Notes: generated by a model not told the origin, from the letters alone. A stretch of 64,000 nucleotides of DNA from Gammaproteobacteria bacterium (GCA_965221955.1 CBDCTA010000028.1:1-64000); one strand, 5' to 3'; shown: positions 17,281 through 42,003, counted from the first letter of the stretch. Numbers and translations are program-made.

Positions 17281-19588
17281 TCAAGGCTTAGTGTGCCAAA
17301 AGCGTTGTCGCACTTCACGATATCCTGGCTGTAATTGCAATCCGTTTTTTTCAGAAAATTCAAAGCTAATCATACCTTGCATAGCCGAATTTACTAAGTC
17401 ACTACCAAACTCTTCGTAACGCGAGACTACTTTTTCATCGGGAAAACCATAGGGATTCCTATAGCCAGTAGTAAATACGACATAATCTGGCGAAGTGGCC
17501 TTAATAAAGGCAGCAGTAGAGGATGAATTACTACCATGATGTGGCGCAATCAGTACATCTACATTTAGCCTATTTGCATCGTGTTTGACCAAGCTTCGCT
17601 CAATAGGCTTTTCGATATCGCCTGTTAACAAAAGGCTACCAGACAGATGCTCGACGCGTAATACACATGAGCTATTATTTTTAGAGAGCTTACCTATGTT
17701 TTCATCCTCTAAGTCTCGCGCTGGATGTAAAAAAGTAAAATTTACTTCTTGCCACTGCCACTGCAGACCTTCTCTACAAGCGCTAAGTTCATCATGCTGA
17801 TAATCAGCCGTCTGGTTTACGATCAATTGTTTAACTTTTATATTCGCTAACAATCCATCTAGTCCACCTGCATGATCTTTATCCCCATGACTCACTACTA
17901 GCGTATCGATTTCATGAATCCCACGTTTGCGCAAATACGTGGCAACGATAGCTTCGCCTGCATTAAAACTATTACTAAATTTTGGACCGGTGTCATAAAC
18001 CAATACCTTTTCACCCACATGCAATACGACCGCAGTCCCTTGACCTACATCTAATACGGATAAAATAAGATCATTTTTAGAACCAGTTGGTGACTTAGCG
18101 AAAACGAGTGGACTCAATAATGCAATACTAAGCGCTTTTGCGGGCCAACCTTTTGGCATAAGTAAAAGTAGAATGCCAAATGCAGCTGGAATAAGCGCCC
18201 AGCTAGGAACCGCATGTTTCCAACTCGCAAAAGGCAAACTGTGCAAATAATCCAAAACAAACCAAAATATATCTAGAAAAACACCAACTACTTGCAAAAT
18301 CCAAGCACCAAAGCTCTCATTAATTAATAACAGCAAAGCACCAACCAAACTAAGCGGCACAACTAAAATACTTACCCAAGGAACTGCGAAAAGATTTGCA
18401 ATCGGTGAAATTAAAGAGGCTTGTTGGAAAAATAATAAAGTTATAGGCAGTAGCCCTAGAGCAAGCGCAAGTTGAATTTTAACAACATGCAAACCCCACC
18501 TTTCAGATGACTTCTTACCTTTGACTGAAAATAGAATAATTGCAACTGCGATAAATGATAACCAAAACCCTGGCGCTAATACTGAAAAAGGATTCCATAC
18601 CAATACACACAACAACGCAATCGCTAGAATATTCCAAGGTCGGAATGATTGCATGGTGTAGATAGATAAAAATACTACTGCTGCCATTACCATGGCACGT
18701 TGCGTGGGAATAGAAAATCCTGCAAGCATTGCATAAAATACTGCAGCGAAAATGGCTGCAATAGCCGCTACACGTTGTGCTGGAATATATAGACAACACC
18801 TTTCGCTACGCTTCCAACACCACACCACTAAAAAATATACAAAACCAGAAACAATTCCTACATGCAATCCGGAAATAGCGAGCAAATGATTCGTTCCTGT
18901 CTGCGTTAGCATTTGCCAGCGATCCGCATCCATTTGACCACGTTCACCTAACACTAAGGCTTTTATGATTGCAAGATGATTCTTTTTTGAGGATTCAAGC
19001 TTTTGATTTAGTTTTGCACGTAAATAATATGCAGGATTCGAGAGGCTTGTTTTTTTGATGCGTTGATTATTACCTTTTACTGCGTACATACCCAGTCGCA
19101 CGAATTTCACGCTCAAATAACCATTTCTCATAATCAAAGCTACCTGGATTAGCAAAACCCCAGGGGCGTTTTAAACGTATTCTTAATTGCCAAGTTTCAC
19201 CTAACTGGATGTCAGGCAAATTGCCATACCAGTTTAGCCTTACCTTTTTTGGCAAATTCACCAATTTGCCACGCCGATGGCCTTCTTCAATTACAAACTC
19301 AAATCTTAAACTGCGAGCTTGTCTTGCAGGGATTGAAACCACCTTACCAGATACTTCTAGATCAACTCCTTCAAGAGACTTATTTAATCCAGGGTGTAAA
19401 TTCAGGTGGGCATGCGCTAAAGCACAGAAAAAGCCGAGTAAAAGGCTAACCAGCAAAACACTACGAGGGTATTTCAACCCAATTAAGACTGTCGGTACAA
19501 TTCCAATAGCCCAATACCAATGCGGCAACGTAGTAAACACTGTTAAAATAGTGACGCCAAGTAAAAACGCTACCGCAACCTTAAGCAT
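17281..19588 (-). pseudogene. comEC: ComEC/Rec2 DNA uptake channel, split by a single frameshift
   Basis: 5' ORF (NPGSFDYEKWLF..ATGYV) stops at 19070. The 3' frame carries HLLAISGLHVG, DVGQG, SHGDKDHAGG and PHHGS. Removing one base from TTTT 19075-19078 joins them as YVRSKGNNQR. Confidence 0.85.
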
Positions 19589-19661
19589 GGATAACTTTCC
19601 CAACCAAATGTTATATTTTTATTTTAACCTAGATAAGCACCATAGATTCATATCCAGATAA

Positions 19662-36900: not shown

Positions 36901-37370
36901 ATTTGGATCAACCGATGGATCAAGGCATTGAAGTTAATCTAGGTGTGCCTGCGCTCATCCCGGATGATTATTTACCTGACATACATGGAAGGTTAGTCAT
37001 GTATAAACGCATTGCTAGCGCAAAAACCAGCGATGATTTAGATGATCTCGAAATCGAATTAATTGATCGTTACGGATTATTACCTGAATTTGCTAAAAAT
37101 TTATTCTTAGTCACCCATCTAAAACTGCTTGCAAGTAGCTTTGGTGTATCACGAATTGAAATGAGCCATGAAACAGCGCGCATTCATTTTGGCAAGTCGC
37201 CAAATATCGATACTACGAAGATATTAGAGCTTATTCTTGAGCAACCTGATACTTATAAGCTTGATGGCTCCGAAAAGCTCACGGTTTATACAGAAACTGA
37301 AAATATTGGGGAACGAATTGACACCATCGTGAATCTATTAAATGATCTACAATTAAAACAAGCTGCTTAA
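33915..37370 (+). CDS. mfd: transcription-repair coupling factor
   Basis: 1151 aa; GDVGFGKTEVA, DEEQRFG, TATPIPRT, DLEIRGAGELLG. Confidence 0.98.
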   Translation: MSIFNPPLPGNEHSHVTWGRTYGCSKGLALAKAVEQFNGLTLIITPDIQTAHSLESELKFFCIQGINIYLFPDLETLPYDVFSPHEDIISDRILALSALPKTQQGALIISAGTILSKLASKDFILGQTLNLKINDQLHLENFKHTLTKAGYQYVSQVVTHGEFAVRGSIIDLFPMGSNHPYRIDLFDDEIETIRIFNPETQVSTDKVGTLQVLPAREFPTDENAIKRFRQNYRIQFEGDPNKSVIYRGVSNNNLPAGIEYYLPLFCEETSTFFDFIPENSQLVLIEDIVDIAMDFENDVFYRYEQRKYDLERPPLHPKQVWISTDFFEKNLFKFNTIKLQQYELEHLHRDQYNFDAQALPTLTINSRIKDPASELIRFIESGTKKILFLAESAGRREYILDVLKGFKIIPTVVDSWPEFLSSELSLAITLGPLDDGLLLQQENIAIITESNLFGAKAKQKRKRRRQIRDAESLIKNLSDLSEGSPVVHEDHGVGRYKGLKTLSLSGTDTEFLILEYAEGDILYVPVSSLHLVSRYSGASEENAPLHHLGGDAWKNIKRRAAKRAQDVAAELLDIYSRREAKQGFQYKIDVIEFNAFCNSFPYEETPDQLKAIEDVISDMESKRPMDRVVCGDVGFGKTEVAMRAAFIAANAGKQVAVLVPTTLLSSQHFQNFSDRFADLAIEIETLSRFVPAKKQKQVLTGLEDGQVDIVIGTHKLFNSAIKFKNLGLVIVDEEQRFGVRQKEILKKMRTEVDILTLTATPIPRTLNMSLSGLRDLSIIATPPNLRLAIKTFVGTWNDGMIQEACMREMKRGGQVFFLHNEVKTIEKAAKDIQQLLPDSAIRIAHGQMPEKELEQVMLDFYHQRFSILVCTTIIENGIDIPTANTIIINRADKLGLSQLHQIRGRVGRSHHRAYAYLIAPPRPAMTADAVKRLEAIESLEDLGVGFTLATHDLEIRGAGELLGAEQSGQIHEVGFTLYNELLGRAVEALKAGEIPDLDQPMDQGIEVNLGVPALIPDDYLPDIHGRLVMYKRIASAKTSDDLDDLEIELIDRYGLLPEFAKNLFLVTHLKLLASSFGVSRIEMSHETARIHFGKSPNIDTTKILELILEQPDTYKLDGSEKLTVYTETENIGERIDTIVNLLNDLQLKQAA

Positions 37371-37382
37371 ATCAATCATTAC

Positions 37383-38045
37383 ATGCCTTACTTTAATAAA
37401 ATCTTTCTACTCTCTGTTCTACTCGCCTTTTGCAACAATGCTTTCAGCAAGGACTATATCGTTGAAATGGTGTTTTTCGCGAATATGAAAAGCAATGCGG
37501 GTTCCGTACATGTATCCAACCAAGCCGTTATACCTGATCTGGGCGGTGCAATCACCTTAAATGAAGCTTCGCAATCGAAAGGCTTTATTCCCTTAAGTTC
37601 TGACACATTTCAGTTAAGCAATAAAGCTGCTGCACTGAATAAGTCTGGTAACTATCGTGTAATTAAACATATGTCCTGGCTACAACCCGGGCTAGCAAAA
37701 GAAGATGCCATTGCAGTGCGTGTACATGCTGGCAAAAATTACAAAGATGAATTTAAAGAGCGGTCTTTTGCACAAGCAAATTTTAGTGACCGACAAGTTC
37801 CAATCAATCACCCTGTCAATGAATTAGATGGCACGGTAAAAATCGTACTTGGACGTTTTCTACATTTATACACCGACTTAGCCTATCGAAAAACATTTAA
37901 TATCTCTTCAGGAGATGCCCTAGGTAGAAACCGCGTGCTTGCAGATTTTCCAGTTAAAACACATCGTAAAATGCGCAGCAAAACCCTACATTATATTGAC
38001 CATCCCTACCTTGGAATTCTAATTGAAATCCGCCCTGCTGGATGA
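37383..38045 (+). CDS. csiV: CsiV-family periplasmic protein
   Basis: Signal peptide, H..WLQP, RKMRS..LHYIDHPYLG; directly follows mfd. Confidence 0.8.
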   Translation: MPYFNKIFLLSVLLAFCNNAFSKDYIVEMVFFANMKSNAGSVHVSNQAVIPDLGGAITLNEASQSKGFIPLSSDTFQLSNKAAALNKSGNYRVIKHMSWLQPGLAKEDAIAVRVHAGKNYKDEFKERSFAQANFSDRQVPINHPVNELDGTVKIVLGRFLHLYTDLAYRKTFNISSGDALGRNRVLADFPVKTHRKMRSKTLHYIDHPYLGILIEIRPAG

Positions 38046-38050
38046 GTGAG

Positions 38051-38162
38051 TCCATGGATGTGAGCGCAGGACGACGTGCATGGATGCACTAGTGTCTCGG
38101 GAGACAGGATGTAGGGAGCGACCGCACGAATATGAGATCCATCAGGAATGATGCAACTGATT
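38051..38162 (+). repeat. left inverted repeat of island with GGA hairpins and nested insert
   Basis: 38127-38162 matches the reverse complement of 40598-40633 at 31/36; TGTGAGCGCA 38059-38068 matches 40642-40651. Confidence 0.8.
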
Positions 38163-38177
38163 AAAGATCTTTATTTA

Positions 38178-38209
38178 AAATGACCGCTTTCAGTCAATAG
38201 CAGTCATTT
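38178..38209 (+). repeat. 32-bp cassette site S1
   Basis: AAATGACCGCT-TTCAGTCAAT-AGCAGTCATTT. Confidence 0.85.
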
Positions 38210-38576
38210 ACGTTCTTGCTGACTGGGACCAATAATCGAGCTCGGCGATAATGTAATTAGCTACGGCTTCCTCAATTGAATTAAATTCAATTCGTTTTTC
38301 TGGATTCTCAAATAGCCAAATTTCATTGGATTCCGGAACCAGTACCCACCCACTAGATGTTCGTTTGTCCTCACAAAATTGAATCCAATCGTCAACATAT
38401 CTACTTTCTTTTCGTATCTCCTTGACAAGATCCTCTGGAACAACCATTTCTCGAAGGCTTTTGTAATGTGTTTGGTCGATTGCTTTTCGTAAAGATATGC
38501 CCTTACCACGAATCGACACATCTCGGCCAATCGAAAGAATATTTCTCAGATCCTCGCTTTGTGCTTTGGCTGGCAT
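38208..38576 (-). CDS. hypothetical protein (cassette 1)
   Basis: 122-aa ORF whose stop codon overlaps S1. Confidence 0.65.
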   Translation of the reverse strand: MPAKAQSEDLRNILSIGRDVSIRGKGISLRKAIDQTHYKSLREMVVPEDLVKEIRKESRYVDDWIQFCEDKRTSSGWVLVPESNEIWLFENPEKRIEFNSIEEAVANYIIAELDYWSQSART

Positions 38577-38676
38577 GGCGTCTTACAATTAATTAAAGCG
38601 CATAAACTAAATTCTAATATGTTTTTAAGTGACAGAAATGTATTGCAATTGAAACCTTATATTTATACAGAATCTG

Positions 38677-38708
38677 CAACGTTCGCTTTGGGTCGAATGC
38701 AGTCGAAA
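38677..38708 (+). repeat. 32-bp cassette site S2 (degenerate)
   Basis: CAACGTTCGCT-TTGGGTCGAA-TGCAGTCGAAA. Confidence 0.7.
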
Positions 38709-38710
38709 TA

Positions 38711-39025
38711 TTATTTTGAATCATACATGGCATTATCATAAAGGTGGTGAAACATATCTTCTGTCAACTCAGGACAAATCCCTAGAATTGCTTTCATAAA
38801 ATCATCCTTCTCTATCTCCTTGCCCCAACGCTTAAATGATAACTCCCATAAGGCTTCATTCATTTTTACCCCTACTTTTATTGCTTCATCAATTTCTGTA
38901 GCGGAATAATTTGAATAATTTTGAAGTAGTATTGCTTTGGCTTCATCAAGCTTTCCTCTACGACTCAACCAACATGCATCAATATGAATGTTATTAAAAC
39001 TATTGTCGTATCCAAGTCCACTCAT
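38711..39025 (-). CDS. hypothetical protein (cassette 2)
   Basis: 104-aa ORF filling S2-S3. Confidence 0.65.
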   Translation of the reverse strand: MSGLGYDNSFNNIHIDACWLSRRGKLDEAKAILLQNYSNYSATEIDEAIKVGVKMNEALWELSFKRWGKEIEKDDFMKAILGICPELTEDMFHHLYDNAMYDSK

Positions 39026-39035
39026 ATCTTCAACT

Positions 39036-39067
39036 TTATGTACGCTTTGGGTCGTTAGTGATCATTT
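39036..39067 (+). repeat. 32-bp cassette site S3
   Basis: TTATGTACGCT-TTGGGTCGTT-AGTGATCATTT. Confidence 0.8.
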
Positions 39068-39375
39068 ATCCTTATCTTTGAGGACATAATTAGAATTAAA
39101 CCTACGATTAGGCTAATGATAAAAATTATAAGTGAGAAGGGTCTTTCTAACACCCAAAAAATTAATCTTTGCAACTCTTGCCAATCCATATCAAGTAATT
39201 TTGTGAAGTCAATATTTAATTTTTGGAGAACTTCATAAAACCGCAATGAAAACCACTCCCCATACTTAATCCAAAAATAACCTTGGTAAGCTAGAATCAC
39301 TAAAGTTGCGAAGAAGCCTGCACTAATAATAAATATTCCAGCATCACTTATTTTTTCCGATTGTTTAGTTCTCAT
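39055..39375 (-). CDS. hypothetical membrane protein (cassette 3)
   Basis: 106 aa, two TM segments; stop codon inside S3. Confidence 0.65.
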   Translation of the reverse strand: MRTKQSEKISDAGIFIISAGFFATLVILAYQGYFWIKYGEWFSLRFYEVLQKLNIDFTKLLDMDWQELQRLIFWVLERPFSLIIFIISLIVGLILIMSSKIRINDH

Positions 39376-39464
39376 GTTAATGCAATTAAAATATTAGAAT
39401 CTTTTTCCCAGTATTGTTTATTTATCGTTTTGTTCAGCTTGAATGATCAGATTAGCCTAACGTT

Positions 39465-39496
39465 AAATGTCCGATTAGGGTCGATAGCGGTCATTT
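39465..39496 (+). repeat. 32-bp cassette site S4
   Basis: AAATGTCCGAT-TAGGGTCGAT-AGCGGTCATTT. Confidence 0.85.
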
Positions 39497-39797
39497 ATTG
39501 ATATGTGAAATATTCAAACTCTCGATCTCTCGCAAATTGGGTTTTGCATAATTCATAACCCTTGTCCCATGCAGACGTGTACAAATCATCTTTTAAATAC
39601 GCCTCGCTTCGTTTAAAGGTTGACATAAAATTGCCTGCAACCTCCCAGCCACTGTTGCAACCATCTGTATAGCCTTGCTTATATGCCAATGGTGTATTCT
39701 CAGGTAGTGTATTTCTGTATTCATCATAGGCACCATAGGGGTCATTAGCACAAGAAATAATCATAACGATTAATATTGTGATAATTATATGTTTCAT
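39495..39797 (-). CDS. hypothetical lipoprotein (cassette 4)
   Basis: Lipobox IISC; YKQGYTDGCNSG; stop codon overlaps S4. Confidence 0.7.
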   Translation of the reverse strand: MKHIIITILIVMIISCANDPYGAYDEYRNTLPENTPLAYKQGYTDGCNSGWEVAGNFMSTFKRSEAYLKDDLYTSAWDKGYELCKTQFARDREFEYFTYQ

Positions 39798-39821
39798 ATA
39801 AATAAATGATATTCAGTTTGT

Positions 39822-39853
39822 AAGTGTCCACTTTCGGTCAATAACGGACATTC
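39822..39853 (+). repeat. 32-bp cassette site S5
   Basis: AAGTGTCCACT-TTCGGTCAAT-AACGGACATTC. Confidence 0.8.
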
Positions 39854-39880
39854 GTTATTTAAATTTTTATTCTCAATTAT

Positions 39881-39918
39881 TGCATCATCTTGGTGCTCAG
39901 ATGCAACATGATAGTGCA
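39881..39918. promoter_or_regulatory. tandem NtrC-like enhancer sites
   Basis: TGCATC-ATCTT-GGTGCT (39881-39897) and TGCAAC-ATGAT-AGTGCA (39902-39918). Confidence 0.7.
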
Positions 39919-39992
39919 GCTTCAATTGCGCACTAGCTAAAGTCTTTACCTTTTCAATTATAAGTATCTAATAACATTGAAATAGTAGGTAC

Positions 39993-40008
39993 TGGCATAA
40001 CTTGTGCA
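39993..40008 (+). promoter_or_regulatory. sigma54 -24/-12 promoter of cynS
   Basis: TGGCATAACTTGTGCA, exact GG-N10-GC spacing. Confidence 0.8.
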
Positions 40009-40042
40009 TTGAATTGTTGTTATTTGTTATGGAGGAAATGAA

Positions 40043-40528
40043 ATGAACGAAATAATGACAGAACCAGTATGTGTGGTAAATAAAGCCATGTCCAAAGAAG
40101 AAATGACCGATTTAATCATTTCTGCAAAAAAAACAAAGGGGCTTTCATGGAAATCTATAGCAAACGAATTGAATGTTGGAGAGGCTTGGATTGCCTCAGC
40201 CTGCCTTGGAATGAATAGTACATCAGAGGTAATTGCAAATAAACTTTGCGATCTCCTCGAATTAGACGACAGAGTATGCACCCTGCTACAAGAGTACCCT
40301 CATAAAGAATGGGCTAAAGCAATCCCTCAAGACCCAGTTATCTATCGACTTTATGAAATTGTCGGAGTATATGGTGACACTATTAAAGAAATCATTGCTG
40401 AAAAATTTGGCGATGGAATTATGAGTGCTATTGATTTTTCAATGGACATCGACAAAGAGGAAAATCCAAAAGGCGATCGTGTTGTGATTACACTTAATGG
40501 TAAATTTTTAAAATATACATCGTGGTGA
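40043..40528 (+). CDS. cynS: cyanate hydratase (cyanase)
   Basis: PQDPVIYRLYEIVGVYG, EKFGDGIMSAIDF, GDRVVITLNGKFL. Confidence 0.96.
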   Translation: MNEIMTEPVCVVNKAMSKEEMTDLIISAKKTKGLSWKSIANELNVGEAWIASACLGMNSTSEVIANKLCDLLELDDRVCTLLQEYPHKEWAKAIPQDPVIYRLYEIVGVYGDTIKEIIAEKFGDGIMSAIDFSMDIDKEENPKGDRVVITLNGKFLKYTSW

Positions 40529-40552
40529 TTATTGGACTAGATGAATAATTAC

Positions 40553-40584
40553 AAATGTCCGCTTACGACTCAAAGCGGACATTT
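40553..40584 (-). repeat. 32-bp cassette site S6, inverted orientation
   Basis: AAATGTCCGCT-TACGACTCAA-AGCGGACATTT; perfect arms; core reverse complement TTGAGTCGTA. Confidence 0.85.
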
Positions 40585-40597
40585 TAATTAAAAATAG

Positions 40598-40651
40598 AAT
40601 CGGTTGCATCATCCTTGATGGACATCATATTCGCACATCCATGCGCTCACA
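40598..40651 (-). repeat. right inverted repeat of island
   Basis: Reverse complement of the 38059-38162 repeat without the internal insert. Confidence 0.8.
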
Positions 40652-40672
40652 CATTTGGGTCGCATGCAGGAA

Positions 40673-41413
40673 TCACAAATTCGCAACTACAGAACTCAAT
40701 ATTGTTTTCACTAAAGCCATTCCCTTTTCTATTGCTTGCTCAATTTCTTCCATAGTAATTTCTTGATTGGTTTTACCTGCAGCCCAATTAACGCATAATG
40801 CGCAACACGCATAATGCAAACCTAGTTCTTTCGCTAACGCCGCTTCTGGCATCCCTGTCATACCGACAATGTCGCAGCCATCTTTTTCCATGCGATTAAT
40901 TTCTGATGCAGTTTCCAGCCGTGGACCTTGAGTGGCACCGTAAACACCACTTTGGTGTACATCGATATTTGAATGGGTCGCAGCATTTAATAGCTTTTTT
41001 CTAAGTGCTTCATTATAAGGATTTGTAAAATCAATATGGGTAACTTCAGATAAGTCGTCTTCGAAAAAAGTATGCTGTCGACCATACGTGTAATCGATAA
41101 TTTGGTCTGGAATGATAATTTTCTCTGGTGGAATGTCTTTATGTATCCCCCCTACTGCTGCCACTCCTATCACATCAGCCACTCCTAAACTTTTTAATGC
41201 CCAGATATTTGCACGGTAATTAATTTTATGTGGAGGAATAGTGTGATCATTCCCATGTCTCGCTAGAAAAACGACTTCATTTCCAGAAAGTTCTCCACTA
41301 ACGAGTGGCGCGCTCACTTCACCATATGGCGTCTCAATCGAATGAGTTTCGGTAATTGAAAGCTCATTGATGGCAGTAAGCCCTGTCCCTCCAATGATGG
41401 CAAGTTTTGTCAT
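40673..41413 (-). CDS. mtnP: S-methyl-5'-thioinosine/thioadenosine phosphorylase
   Basis: IIGGTG, ARHG..H.IPPH.INYRANI, QGPRLET, GMTGMPEA. Confidence 0.9.
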   Translation of the reverse strand: MTKLAIIGGTGLTAINELSITETHSIETPYGEVSAPLVSGELSGNEVVFLARHGNDHTIPPHKINYRANIWALKSLGVADVIGVAAVGGIHKDIPPEKIIIPDQIIDYTYGRQHTFFEDDLSEVTHIDFTNPYNEALRKKLLNAATHSNIDVHQSGVYGATQGPRLETASEINRMEKDGCDIVGMTGMPEAALAKELGLHYACCALCVNWAAGKTNQEITMEEIEQAIEKGMALVKTILSSVVANL

Positions 41414-41429
41414 TACTTATGGCTCTTTA

Positions 41430-41990
41430 TCAATCACTCTTAGCAATCGCGTAAATTGAAGACTGATTACGCAAATAACCTTTGTAATCCATCCCCCAAC
41501 CAAACACATAGCGATCTGTTACTTCCAACCCTAAAAAATCAGGCACCACGTTAACAGGTGTATTGGATAATTTTTTCTTTAGCAGTACAGCAGACAATAC
41601 ACGCTTCGCACCCTTTGCCTGACAATAGGCAATTAATTCTTGCAAGGTATATCCTTCGTCTAAAATATCATCAACGAGAACAACAATACGACCATCTAAT
41701 GATGTATCAGGTTCTTTATGCCAGTGGATACTACTGCCTTGAGTTTTATTACGATATCGATCGACGTGCACATAATCCAAAACCATAGGTGATTGAATAC
41801 GCTGCATTAATGCAGCGGTAAACATAAGCCCACCTTTCATTACGCACAATAAAATAGGCACTTCCCCATTGATCGTTGATTCAATTTGTTTCGCCACTAA
41901 ATCGATAGCGTTATTTATTTCTTGCTCAGAAACTAATACATCCGCATCGTCGCGAACTTGATTGACTTGTTGATGAGACAGATCTTCCAT
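41430..41990 (-). CDS. hpt: hypoxanthine-guanine phosphoribosyltransferase
   Basis: VLVDDILDEGYTL, YVFGWGMDY. Confidence 0.9.
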   Translation of the reverse strand: MEDLSHQQVNQVRDDADVLVSEQEINNAIDLVAKQIESTINGEVPILLCVMKGGLMFTAALMQRIQSPMVLDYVHVDRYRNKTQGSSIHWHKEPDTSLDGRIVVLVDDILDEGYTLQELIAYCQAKGAKRVLSAVLLKKKLSNTPVNVVPDFLGLEVTDRYVFGWGMDYKGYLRNQSSIYAIAKSD

Positions 41991-42003
41991 GAGCTACTTT
42001 TGA

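Follow-up and report, generated by a model that had tools for sequence, protein, structure and literature searches.

The cyanase gene (cynS) of a gammaproteobacterial genome (GCA_965221955.1) is probably a promoter-bearing gene cassette, which would be driven by NtrC and sigma54 and moved at short palindromic sites. The gene lies in a stretch of 64,000 nucleotides (nt), CBDCTA010000028.1:1-64000, referred to here as the window, which is contig C28 of a 2.69-Mb assembly in 29 contigs (~38% GC; completeness 96.6%, contamination 4.3%). The source genome is labelled G000 and the other genomes G001 etc.; the site survey covered 56 genomes of the family, 15 of them from the genus. A preliminary description of the window had proposed that a self-contained nitrogen-starvation module for cyanate use was captured as a cassette, and this proposal is supported by the borders of the unit, its genomic contexts, the CynS tree, and the layout of the promoter.

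The cynS cassette has the same borders in three genomic contexts

The unit delimited by the palindromic sites S5 and S6 (Table 1) is ~760 bp long and recurs in two sister species, G004 and G002, at unrelated loci. The DNA homology of the window to these two genomes begins at S5 and ends at S6, with none beyond, and their CynS proteins are the closest copies to that of the window (86% amino acid identity). These copies came from the genome search only, as the contig search for related loci returned nothing closer than 76%. In G004, the cassette has unknown open reading frames (ORFs) on one side and genes for an M20 peptidase and a methylene-tetrahydromethanopterin dehydrogenase on the other, while in G002 it lies between a split catalase gene and a small ORF with a metalloprotease gene. 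The G002 copy looks to be decaying, as its sites and -12 promoter element are degenerate and the adjoining catalase gene is split. This catalase gene (L037 6330-7817) is divided into two ORFs of 189 and 304 aa.

In the window, the cassette belongs to an array that separates csiV from an mtnP-like gene. Within the fetched flank, the two genes lie side by side and converge in 10 of the 14 other genus genomes; of the remaining four, three have no csiV within 1.5 kb and one reaches a contig end. No palindromes were found between csiV and mtnP in those 10 genomes, where the gaps range from ~60 nt (G011, with nothing in it) to ~1.4 kb. Vertical conservation of cynS at this locus, which the preliminary description had named as an observation that would speak against capture, was thus not seen, since the 10 relatives that could be examined hold no such array there.

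Homologs of cynS are present in 7 of the 14 other genus genomes and in 18/36 family genomes. It had also been suggested that the CynS phylogeny be compared with that of the hosts and that close homologs be inspected for the same flanking sites. CynS does depart from the genus tree, and the G004 and G002 copies are site-bounded. The three cassette copies group with the protein of G024, which is of another genus (support 93/86), apart from those of G011, G014, G001, and G006, which are of the same genus; monophyly of the genus was rejected (difference in log-likelihood 34.5; approximately unbiased (AU) test, p-AU 0.003). Outside cassettes, the cynS genes of G011 and of G019 (another genus) have a CynR gene ahead of them (bit scores 342 and 374; cut-off 277). 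Capture of cynS as a promoter-bearing cassette is thus supported by the S5/S6 borders in three contexts, the array-free csiV-mtnP interval of the relatives, and the discordant CynS tree.

An NtrC/sigma54 promoter predicted upstream of cynS

The two NtrC-like boxes reported at 39881-39918 were confirmed; they are spaced 21 nt start to start and lie ~110-130 nt upstream of the -24/-12 promoter. The latter had been called exact at 39993-40008. The GG-N10-GC signature is indeed found there (TGGCATAACTTGTGCA), but the sequence is two positions off TGGCAC-N5-TTGCW, the sigma54 consensus. The glnA gene of G000 has a comparable arrangement, with boxes GCACC-N5-GGTGC and GCACT-N5-GGTGC that are 21 nt apart and ~100-125 nt upstream of TGGCACGCTATGTGCT, and the GTGC form of the -12 element is common to both promoters. 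A composite pattern, consisting of a sigma54 motif preceded at 60-220 nt by two or more GCA-N8-GTGC boxes, matched only these two places in the 2.69-Mb genome (glnA and cynS) and none in 10 block-shuffled genomes. Both RpoN (504 bits) and a true NtrC (727 bits) are encoded in G000, above the curated cut-offs, and no sigma70-like match was found between S5 and the cynS ATG on the cynS strand.

The enhancer boxes are conserved in the cassettes of G004 and G002, and the -24/-12 promoter in that of G004; in G002, the -12 GC is changed to GT. Homologous boxes and promoter layout also precede the non-cassette cynS of G024 and G019. Weaker look-alike layouts were seen before cynS in G033 and G030, with -24/-12 elements read by eye and unflagged by the composite pattern. 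From these comparisons, the region upstream of cynS is read as a real NtrC/sigma54 promoter that would be older than the cassette. Because the same layout precedes the non-cassette genes of G024 and G019, the promoter likely moved together with cynS, and the pair would derive from a chromosomal cynS lineage already under NtrC/sigma54 control.

Under nitrogen limitation, phosphorylated NtrC bound to the two boxes would activate the sigma54 RNA polymerase, with transcription predicted to start near 40019, and CynS would turn cyanate and bicarbonate into ammonium and CO2. As no CynR, CynT, or transporter is attached, the module would answer to nitrogen status only. This layout is like that of glnAp2-type promoters, in which two NtrC sites two helical turns apart are found ~100-130 nt upstream of GG-N10-GC; glnAp2 of E. 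coli is the paradigm of NtrC/sigma54 promoters. Unlike in glnAp2, the layout here would drive a lone cyanase gene on a mobile cassette.

An intact cyanase gene without companions

As judged from its domains and residues, cynS is an intact cyanase gene. Both Pfam cyanase domains were detected (PF02560, 125.8 bits, cut-off 25, E = 5.5e-37; PF21291, 52.6 bits, cut-off 27.1, E = 4.5e-14), and the best match among solved cyanases was 6e-30. The Arg/Glu/Ser motif, R102/E105/S128, which we take to be catalytic following the E. coli numbering, is identical in the alignment with the solved cyanase 6tv0.

The gene had been said to stand alone in the window, without cynT, cynX, or cynABD. This agrees with a Pfam scan of the window, which covered its 65 non-overlapping ORFs of 90 aa or more and revealed no carbonic anhydrase, CynX-type MFS protein, or cyanate/nitrate ABC component. 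A CynR above the cut-off was not found in G000 (best 139 bits versus 277), which is a weak negative, as the E. coli control was also below the cut-off. The enzyme is the same as in the known cyn operons, and the relatives G011 and G019 keep the upstream CynR gene; E. coli has cynTSX with CynR, and Pseudomonas has cynFABDS with a sigma54 activator. Unlike these operons, the cassette is devoid of cynT, cynX, cynABD, and cynR.

A second, decayed cynS is located at a contig end of G000 (C20:16950-17391); it is similar at the DNA level, has a frameshift and a premature stop, and has no site behind it.

Orientation of the cassette and its sites

The description of S6 as the only site with a reversed core and perfect arms was accurate (1 of the 6 sites; 12-bp arms). 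The centres of S1-S5 are in the P orientation and that of S6 is in the M orientation, and S6 agrees with cynS as S1-S4 agree with their genes. The claim that the cassette is inverted or invertible did not fare as well, since the 3' site of G004 is opposite, the S5 and S6 centres differ, and only one orientation was found in public contigs.

In G004, the 3' site of the cynS cassette has an exact G-type centre whose orientation is opposite to that of S6, so that cynS stands against that site; the degenerate 3' site of G002 leans the same way. The arms of the 3' site are identical between species and only the 12-nt centre is reversed. The 5' centre of G004 is hard to orient (9 versus 8 of 12 positions, by eye). 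The terminal element that caps the array (see below) adjoins the cassette on the 5' side in G004 and on the 3' side in G000. The reversed centre of S6 would be a local flip, like the one found at another array junction, and in G004 at least, cynS would run against the direction of its 3' site, which would be workable because the cassette has its own promoter.

The centres of S5 and S6 are opposite in orientation and centre flips occur at array junctions, as would suit an inverted pair of sites between which the cynS segment could be flipped like a switch. This is very unlikely, as the two centres are of different types (TCGGTCAA for S5 and, on the opposite strand, TGAGTCGT for S6, differing at 4/8 centre positions), and as the promoter is inside the segment, so that a flip would leave expression unchanged. 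It had been advised to look for both orientations of 39853-40553. In public contigs, only the assembled orientation was seen, with no inversion joint: a single contig of a near-identical source covers 37900-41000, and S5 is bridged by another (39541-39914), which comes from a second study. It should be noted that the four runs examined for inversion, none of them recorded as RNA, are contigs, which drop rare variants, and that the gaps in X1, X2, and X4 are uninformative. Two apparent joints (39058 or 39067 to 40598) were rejected, as their sides of 21-30 nt come from other site and terminal-element loci. Local flipping of the S6 centre is therefore preferred to inversion of the segment. The other alternative of the preliminary description, the head-to-head entry of a second array, may apply; both ends of the cynS-bearing array consist of a terminal element, 14-16 nt, and a site.

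A family of palindromic sites bounding small accessory genes

A scan of G000 revealed 140 palindromes, 134 of which have family-like centres, and a pattern search gave 60 forward and 55 reverse matches versus 0 for the control. The profile of 125 oriented sites describes a 28-bp palindrome with 9-bp arms (ATGTCYGCT / AGCRGWCAT) and a 10-nt asymmetric centre. Arms and centre are equally conserved, and the centre falls into two discrete types, C and G, across genera. Mismatches in the stem are found at two fixed positions and have no wobble bias (43 G-T versus 37 C-A), which argues for recognition of the sites as duplex DNA, by a protein, rather than as a folded strand.

In G000, about a hundred cassettes of small accessory genes are delimited by these sites, mostly in co-oriented arrays. 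The direction of the largest ORF was compared with that of the sites in 68 inter-site intervals (median 544 nt): the two agree in 58 and disagree in 3, and the sites are mixed in 7 (including cynS). A stop codon occurs no more than 60 nt away from 74 oriented sites; the site matches the gene direction in 58 of these cases and not in 11, and in 5 there are stops on both sides. We also found 23 doublets, composed of a C-type site, a conserved linker of 41 or 51 nt, and a G-type site; 22 are co-oriented and 1 is ambiguous. Site orientation follows the local GC skew in 104/129 oriented sites of G000, so arrays and genes run with replication. No Pfam match was obtained for 45 of 78 cassette ORFs; the matched ones include GNATs, a glyoxalase, OsmC, a globin, HSP20, and M23 peptidases. 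An abutting pair of genes, coding for an extracytoplasmic function (ECF) sigma factor and an ArsI-like glyoxalase, is bounded by palindromes, and genes for the bicarbonate transporter SbtA and a P-II protein are also within an array; these observations concern the G000 loci C29:504572-505703 (L159) and C11:5262-6460 (L153).

The site family was detected in all 15 genus genomes (1-174 copies) and in 36/56 family genomes, where the reversed-pattern control gave none. Among 199 other families sampled from the class, 26 copies were counted in one genome and 1-2 matches in each of 18 others, with only some centres family-like; the control gave 1 match in each of 5/201 genomes. An Rfam search of 37000-42000 with E up to 1 returned no match, so that neither the sites nor the terminal element corresponds to a known RNA. 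A consensus terminator scan gave 3 matches versus 1.8 expected, and for S6 the match was confined to the strand opposite to that of cynS.

Could these palindromes instead be structural or RNA-stabilising repeats, like repetitive extragenic palindromes (REP) and bacterial interspersed mosaic elements (BIME), with cassette turnover as a by-product of RecA and with cynS and its promoter working as described above? They are short, extragenic, and high-copy, many are at gene 3' ends (the 58/74 above), the two types are joined by a conserved linker as in BIMEs, and no dedicated recombinase was found in G000. We nevertheless consider this explanation unlikely, though it deserves some weight. The REP-associated tyrosine transposase (RAYT, PF01797) was matched in only 8/56 family genomes and is absent from G000 and from 48/56 family genomes, including complete genomes with 42-150 sites; G002, G004, G010, and G019 are also without a match. 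The doublets are direct in 22/23 cases, while REPINs (paired REPs) are inverted. The most variable DNA is where the sites cluster, while REPs are described as markers of stable regions (PMC3390384). In addition, a 10-nt centre conserved like the arms, in two discrete types across genera, does not fit REP/BIME repeats, the fixed mismatches without wobble bias fit recognition by a protein better than folding, and few sites look like intrinsic terminators.

The sites might also be taken for attC and the array for an ordinary integron fragment (cluster of attC sites lacking an integron integrase, CALIN), since single, small, mostly unknown, co-oriented ORFs with a palindromic site at each 3' end are what such fragments contain. 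The attC sites of integrons are defined by an R''-L''...L'-R' organization, extrahelical bases, and a GTTRRRY border. The integron identity fails because there is no IntI, the best TIGR02249 stretches (83 and 77 bits; cut-off 265) belonging to XerD and XerC, and because the sites are not attC-like: they are near-perfect palindromes of 28-32 nt without the R/L two-box layout, extrahelical bases, or GTTRRRY border (no attC model was run). We find this reading hardly tenable.

Cassette turnover and the agents that might drive it

Exchange of cassettes is seen within G000, in the array adjacent to xerD, when C23:10823-23305 (L155) is compared with C14:4284-8405 (L154). The flanks of these two versions are 99-99.5% identical. 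C14 has one extra unit, exactly 1059 bp site to site, with an HxlR gene and a flavodoxin-like reductase gene, and where C23 has an 11-kb cassette block, C14 has one of 1.5 kb. The breakpoints all fall within sites, and at one junction the centre is exactly reverse-complemented between the versions, which is the same signature as in S6. Similarly, duplicated M23-peptidase cassettes in different arrays share homology that starts at the centre of the 5' G-type site and stops where the 3' C-type site ends. Cassettes would thus move by recombination at the 28-bp palindromic sites.

Four tyrosine-recombinase matches were found in G000 (XerD on two contigs, XerC, and one 431-aa integrase) as well as one serine recombinase. 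The 431-aa integrase was rejected as the site enzyme, as it is present in 5/56 family genomes and does not track the sites; the same applies to the 540-aa serine recombinase, found in 3/15 genus genomes. XerC and XerD are the only recombinases common to all site-bearing relatives checked.

Movement of the cassettes by housekeeping XerC/XerD, a mechanism that has been suggested for dif modules on Acinetobacter plasmids, would agree with these being the only recombinase types of G000 not excluded by distribution, and with a site of 28 bp that has two arms and a centre, like dif. Arrays are found directly upstream of xerD in G000, G010, and G014, and XerD (G000 C23:9193-10110, L009) is 89-98% identical across genera/species of the family, while MTAP is only 63-75% identical within the genus. 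Such conservation of XerD is unusually high for a suspected site enzyme. The site arms, however, are unlike those of the G000 dif candidate (C4:59807), the centre is 10 nt rather than 6, and no array is next to xerD in G001 or G019. Furthermore, the array sites are direct repeats, while dif modules are known for their alternating orientation. On balance, we judge it improbable that XerC/XerD act here in the manner of dif modules.

Several points weigh against our interpretation of cynS as a cassette moved at these sites. No recombinase could be linked to the sites; the one beside the largest array was dismissed as housekeeping XerD (402 bits), located by dsbC, and G001 and G019 lack this adjacency. 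Nor do the sites look like the chromosomal dif candidate at C4:59807, and homologous recombination between repeats of ~30-110 bp could produce identical borders. The C23 and C14 versions may belong to two strains that were binned together (contamination 4.3%). The clade used in the AU test was picked after the identity ranking had been seen. The cynS -12 element is GTGC rather than the textbook TTGC, and its GC reads GT in G002. Finally, the 5' centres of G004 and G002 are too degenerate, so that a cynS natively antisense to its sites relies mainly on the 3' site of G004. The agent of movement may be XerC/XerD, an unrecognised protein, or RecA-driven exchange.

With considerable reservation, we propose that the cassettes bounded by the 28-bp two-type sites might constitute a chromosome-wide, integrase-free recombination system, present in this gammaproteobacterial family and at least one other. 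The G-type site would be 5' and the C-type site 3', terminal elements would cap the arrays, and exact inversion of the centre would mark the junctions. Such a system might be worked by housekeeping Xer or by an enzyme whose recombinase nature has so far gone unnoticed. The cynS cassette would then illustrate that a whole regulated promoter can travel on such a unit, by which a new enzyme is plugged straight into the NtrC regulon of the host.

Relationship to known systems

The arrays are like chromosomal integrons and CALINs in being made of short, mostly single-gene, mostly unknown cassettes, and like chromosomal integrons in having co-oriented sites, one per gene 3' end, and fast turnover between near-identical haplotypes. 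In integrons, a minority of cassettes are reversed and self-expressed. Unlike integrons, the arrays have no IntI, are bounded by a 28-bp palindrome with an asymmetric two-type centre instead of a folded attC, and occur at many separate loci, with a terminal element as a cap instead of intI-attI-Pc at the head.

They also resemble the dif modules reported from Acinetobacter plasmids (PMC6449649, PMC11705084, PMC13141974), in which discrete gene modules have two-armed 28-bp bounds, no dedicated recombinase gene, and suspected Xer involvement. The sites here differ in being not dif-like, direct instead of alternating, chromosomal, and far more numerous (~134 per genome). As with REP, BIME, and REPIN repeats (PMC3390384, PMC3116915), short extragenic high-copy palindromes are found behind genes, in two types and with conserved linkers. 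Three defining features of REPs and REPINs (PMC3390384) are not shared: there is no RAYT, the doublets are direct, and the sites are in variable DNA. Unlike those repeats, the sites here form the exact borders of exchangeable genes. The system thus resembles integrons and Acinetobacter dif modules in outcome and neither of them in parts. The literature searched yielded neither a cyanase on a cassette nor an account of these sites.

Cyanate is a nitrogen source in the sea, and its use is packaged here as one ~760-bp unit. Because the switch for nitrogen starvation is part of this unit, any recipient that has NtrC and RpoN would acquire a correctly regulated trait in one step. The cynS cassette offers a clean, datable example of what appears to be integron-like cassette exchange without integron parts. 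Finding the enzyme would reveal a further route of gene capture and possibly a recombinase and site that form a new pair.

Organization of the array and the terminal element

The array block occupies 2.6 kb between the CsiV-family gene and the gene for a purine-nucleoside/MTAP-type phosphorylase. From left to right, it comprises a GC-rich terminal element, four small minus-strand ORFs, cynS on the plus strand, and an inverted terminal element, which makes five cassettes with six copies of a 32-nt palindrome between the genes (Table 1). Five of these sites were found by a repeat tool (38178, 39036, 39465, 39822, and 40553), and the sixth, which is degenerate (38667-38698), was read by eye. Pfam and NCBIfam searches gave no match for ORFs 1-4.

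Table 1 Coordinates of the cynS-bearing array and its neighbouring genes in the window
Feature	Position	Strand	Remarks
csiV (CsiV family)	37383-38045	+	Left neighbour of the array
Terminal element E, left, long form (core 38126-38162)	38046-38162	+	Directly after the csiV stop; array boundary
Site S1, C-type centre, P orientation	38178-38209	.	Overlaps the ORF1 stop codon
Cassette ORF1, 122 aa	38208-38576	-	No family match
Site S2, degenerate, G-type centre TTTGGGTCGAAT	38667-38698	.	By eye; each arm 6/10 positions; missed by repeat tools
Cassette ORF2, 104 aa	38711-39025	-	No family match
Site S3, G-type centre, P orientation	39036-39067	.	
Cassette ORF3, 106 aa	39055-39375	-	No family match; hydrophobic, membrane-like by eye
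Site S4, G-type centre, P orientation	39465-39496	.	
Cassette ORF4, 100 aa	39495-39797	-	No family match; lipoprotein-like N-terminus by eye
Site S5, C-type centre TTTCGGTCAATA, P orientation	39822-39853	.	Left border of the cynS cassette
NtrC-like enhancer box 1, TGCATC-N5-GGTGCT	39881-39897	+	
NtrC-like enhancer box 2, TGCAAC-N5-AGTGCA	39902-39918	+	
Putative sigma54 -24/-12 promoter TGGCATAACTTGTGCA	39993-40008	+	Transcription start predicted near 40019
Shine-Dalgarno GGAGGA	40031-40036	+	Read from the sequence; conserved in cassette copies
cynS, cyanase (cyanate hydratase), 161 aa	40043-40528	+	
Site S6, G-type centre reversed, perfect 12-bp arms	40553-40584	.	Right border of the cynS cassette
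Terminal element E, right (core 40598-40634)	40598-40662	-	Inverted relative to the left copy; just before the mtnP-like stop at 40673
mtnP-like (MTAP-type phosphorylase)	40673-41413	-	Right neighbour of the array

The two copies of the terminal element that flank the cynS array share a 36-nt inverted repeat (with 40598-40633) that is 86% complementary. The 37-nt core of the element has 17 copies in G000, from which a site is reached at 14-18 nt (8 copies), at 56-57 nt via a linker (3), or at 304 nt (1), with none within 400 nt for the other 5. No complete site was found behind any of the 17 copies; half-sites abut several of them. Inverted pairs of the element bracket arrays on C28, C22 (39520-39576 and 40697-40751), and C17 (16453-17199). 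An RNA fold of the terminal element with S1 was not significant (z = -1.15). The element is rich in hairpins with 5-bp stems and GGA in the loop, which resemble CsrA/RsmA binding motifs.

A gene for a ComEC-type competence channel, with Competence and Lactamase_B domains, is also present in the window (17281-19603), and DNA uptake through such a channel is therefore a possible entry route for the cassettes.

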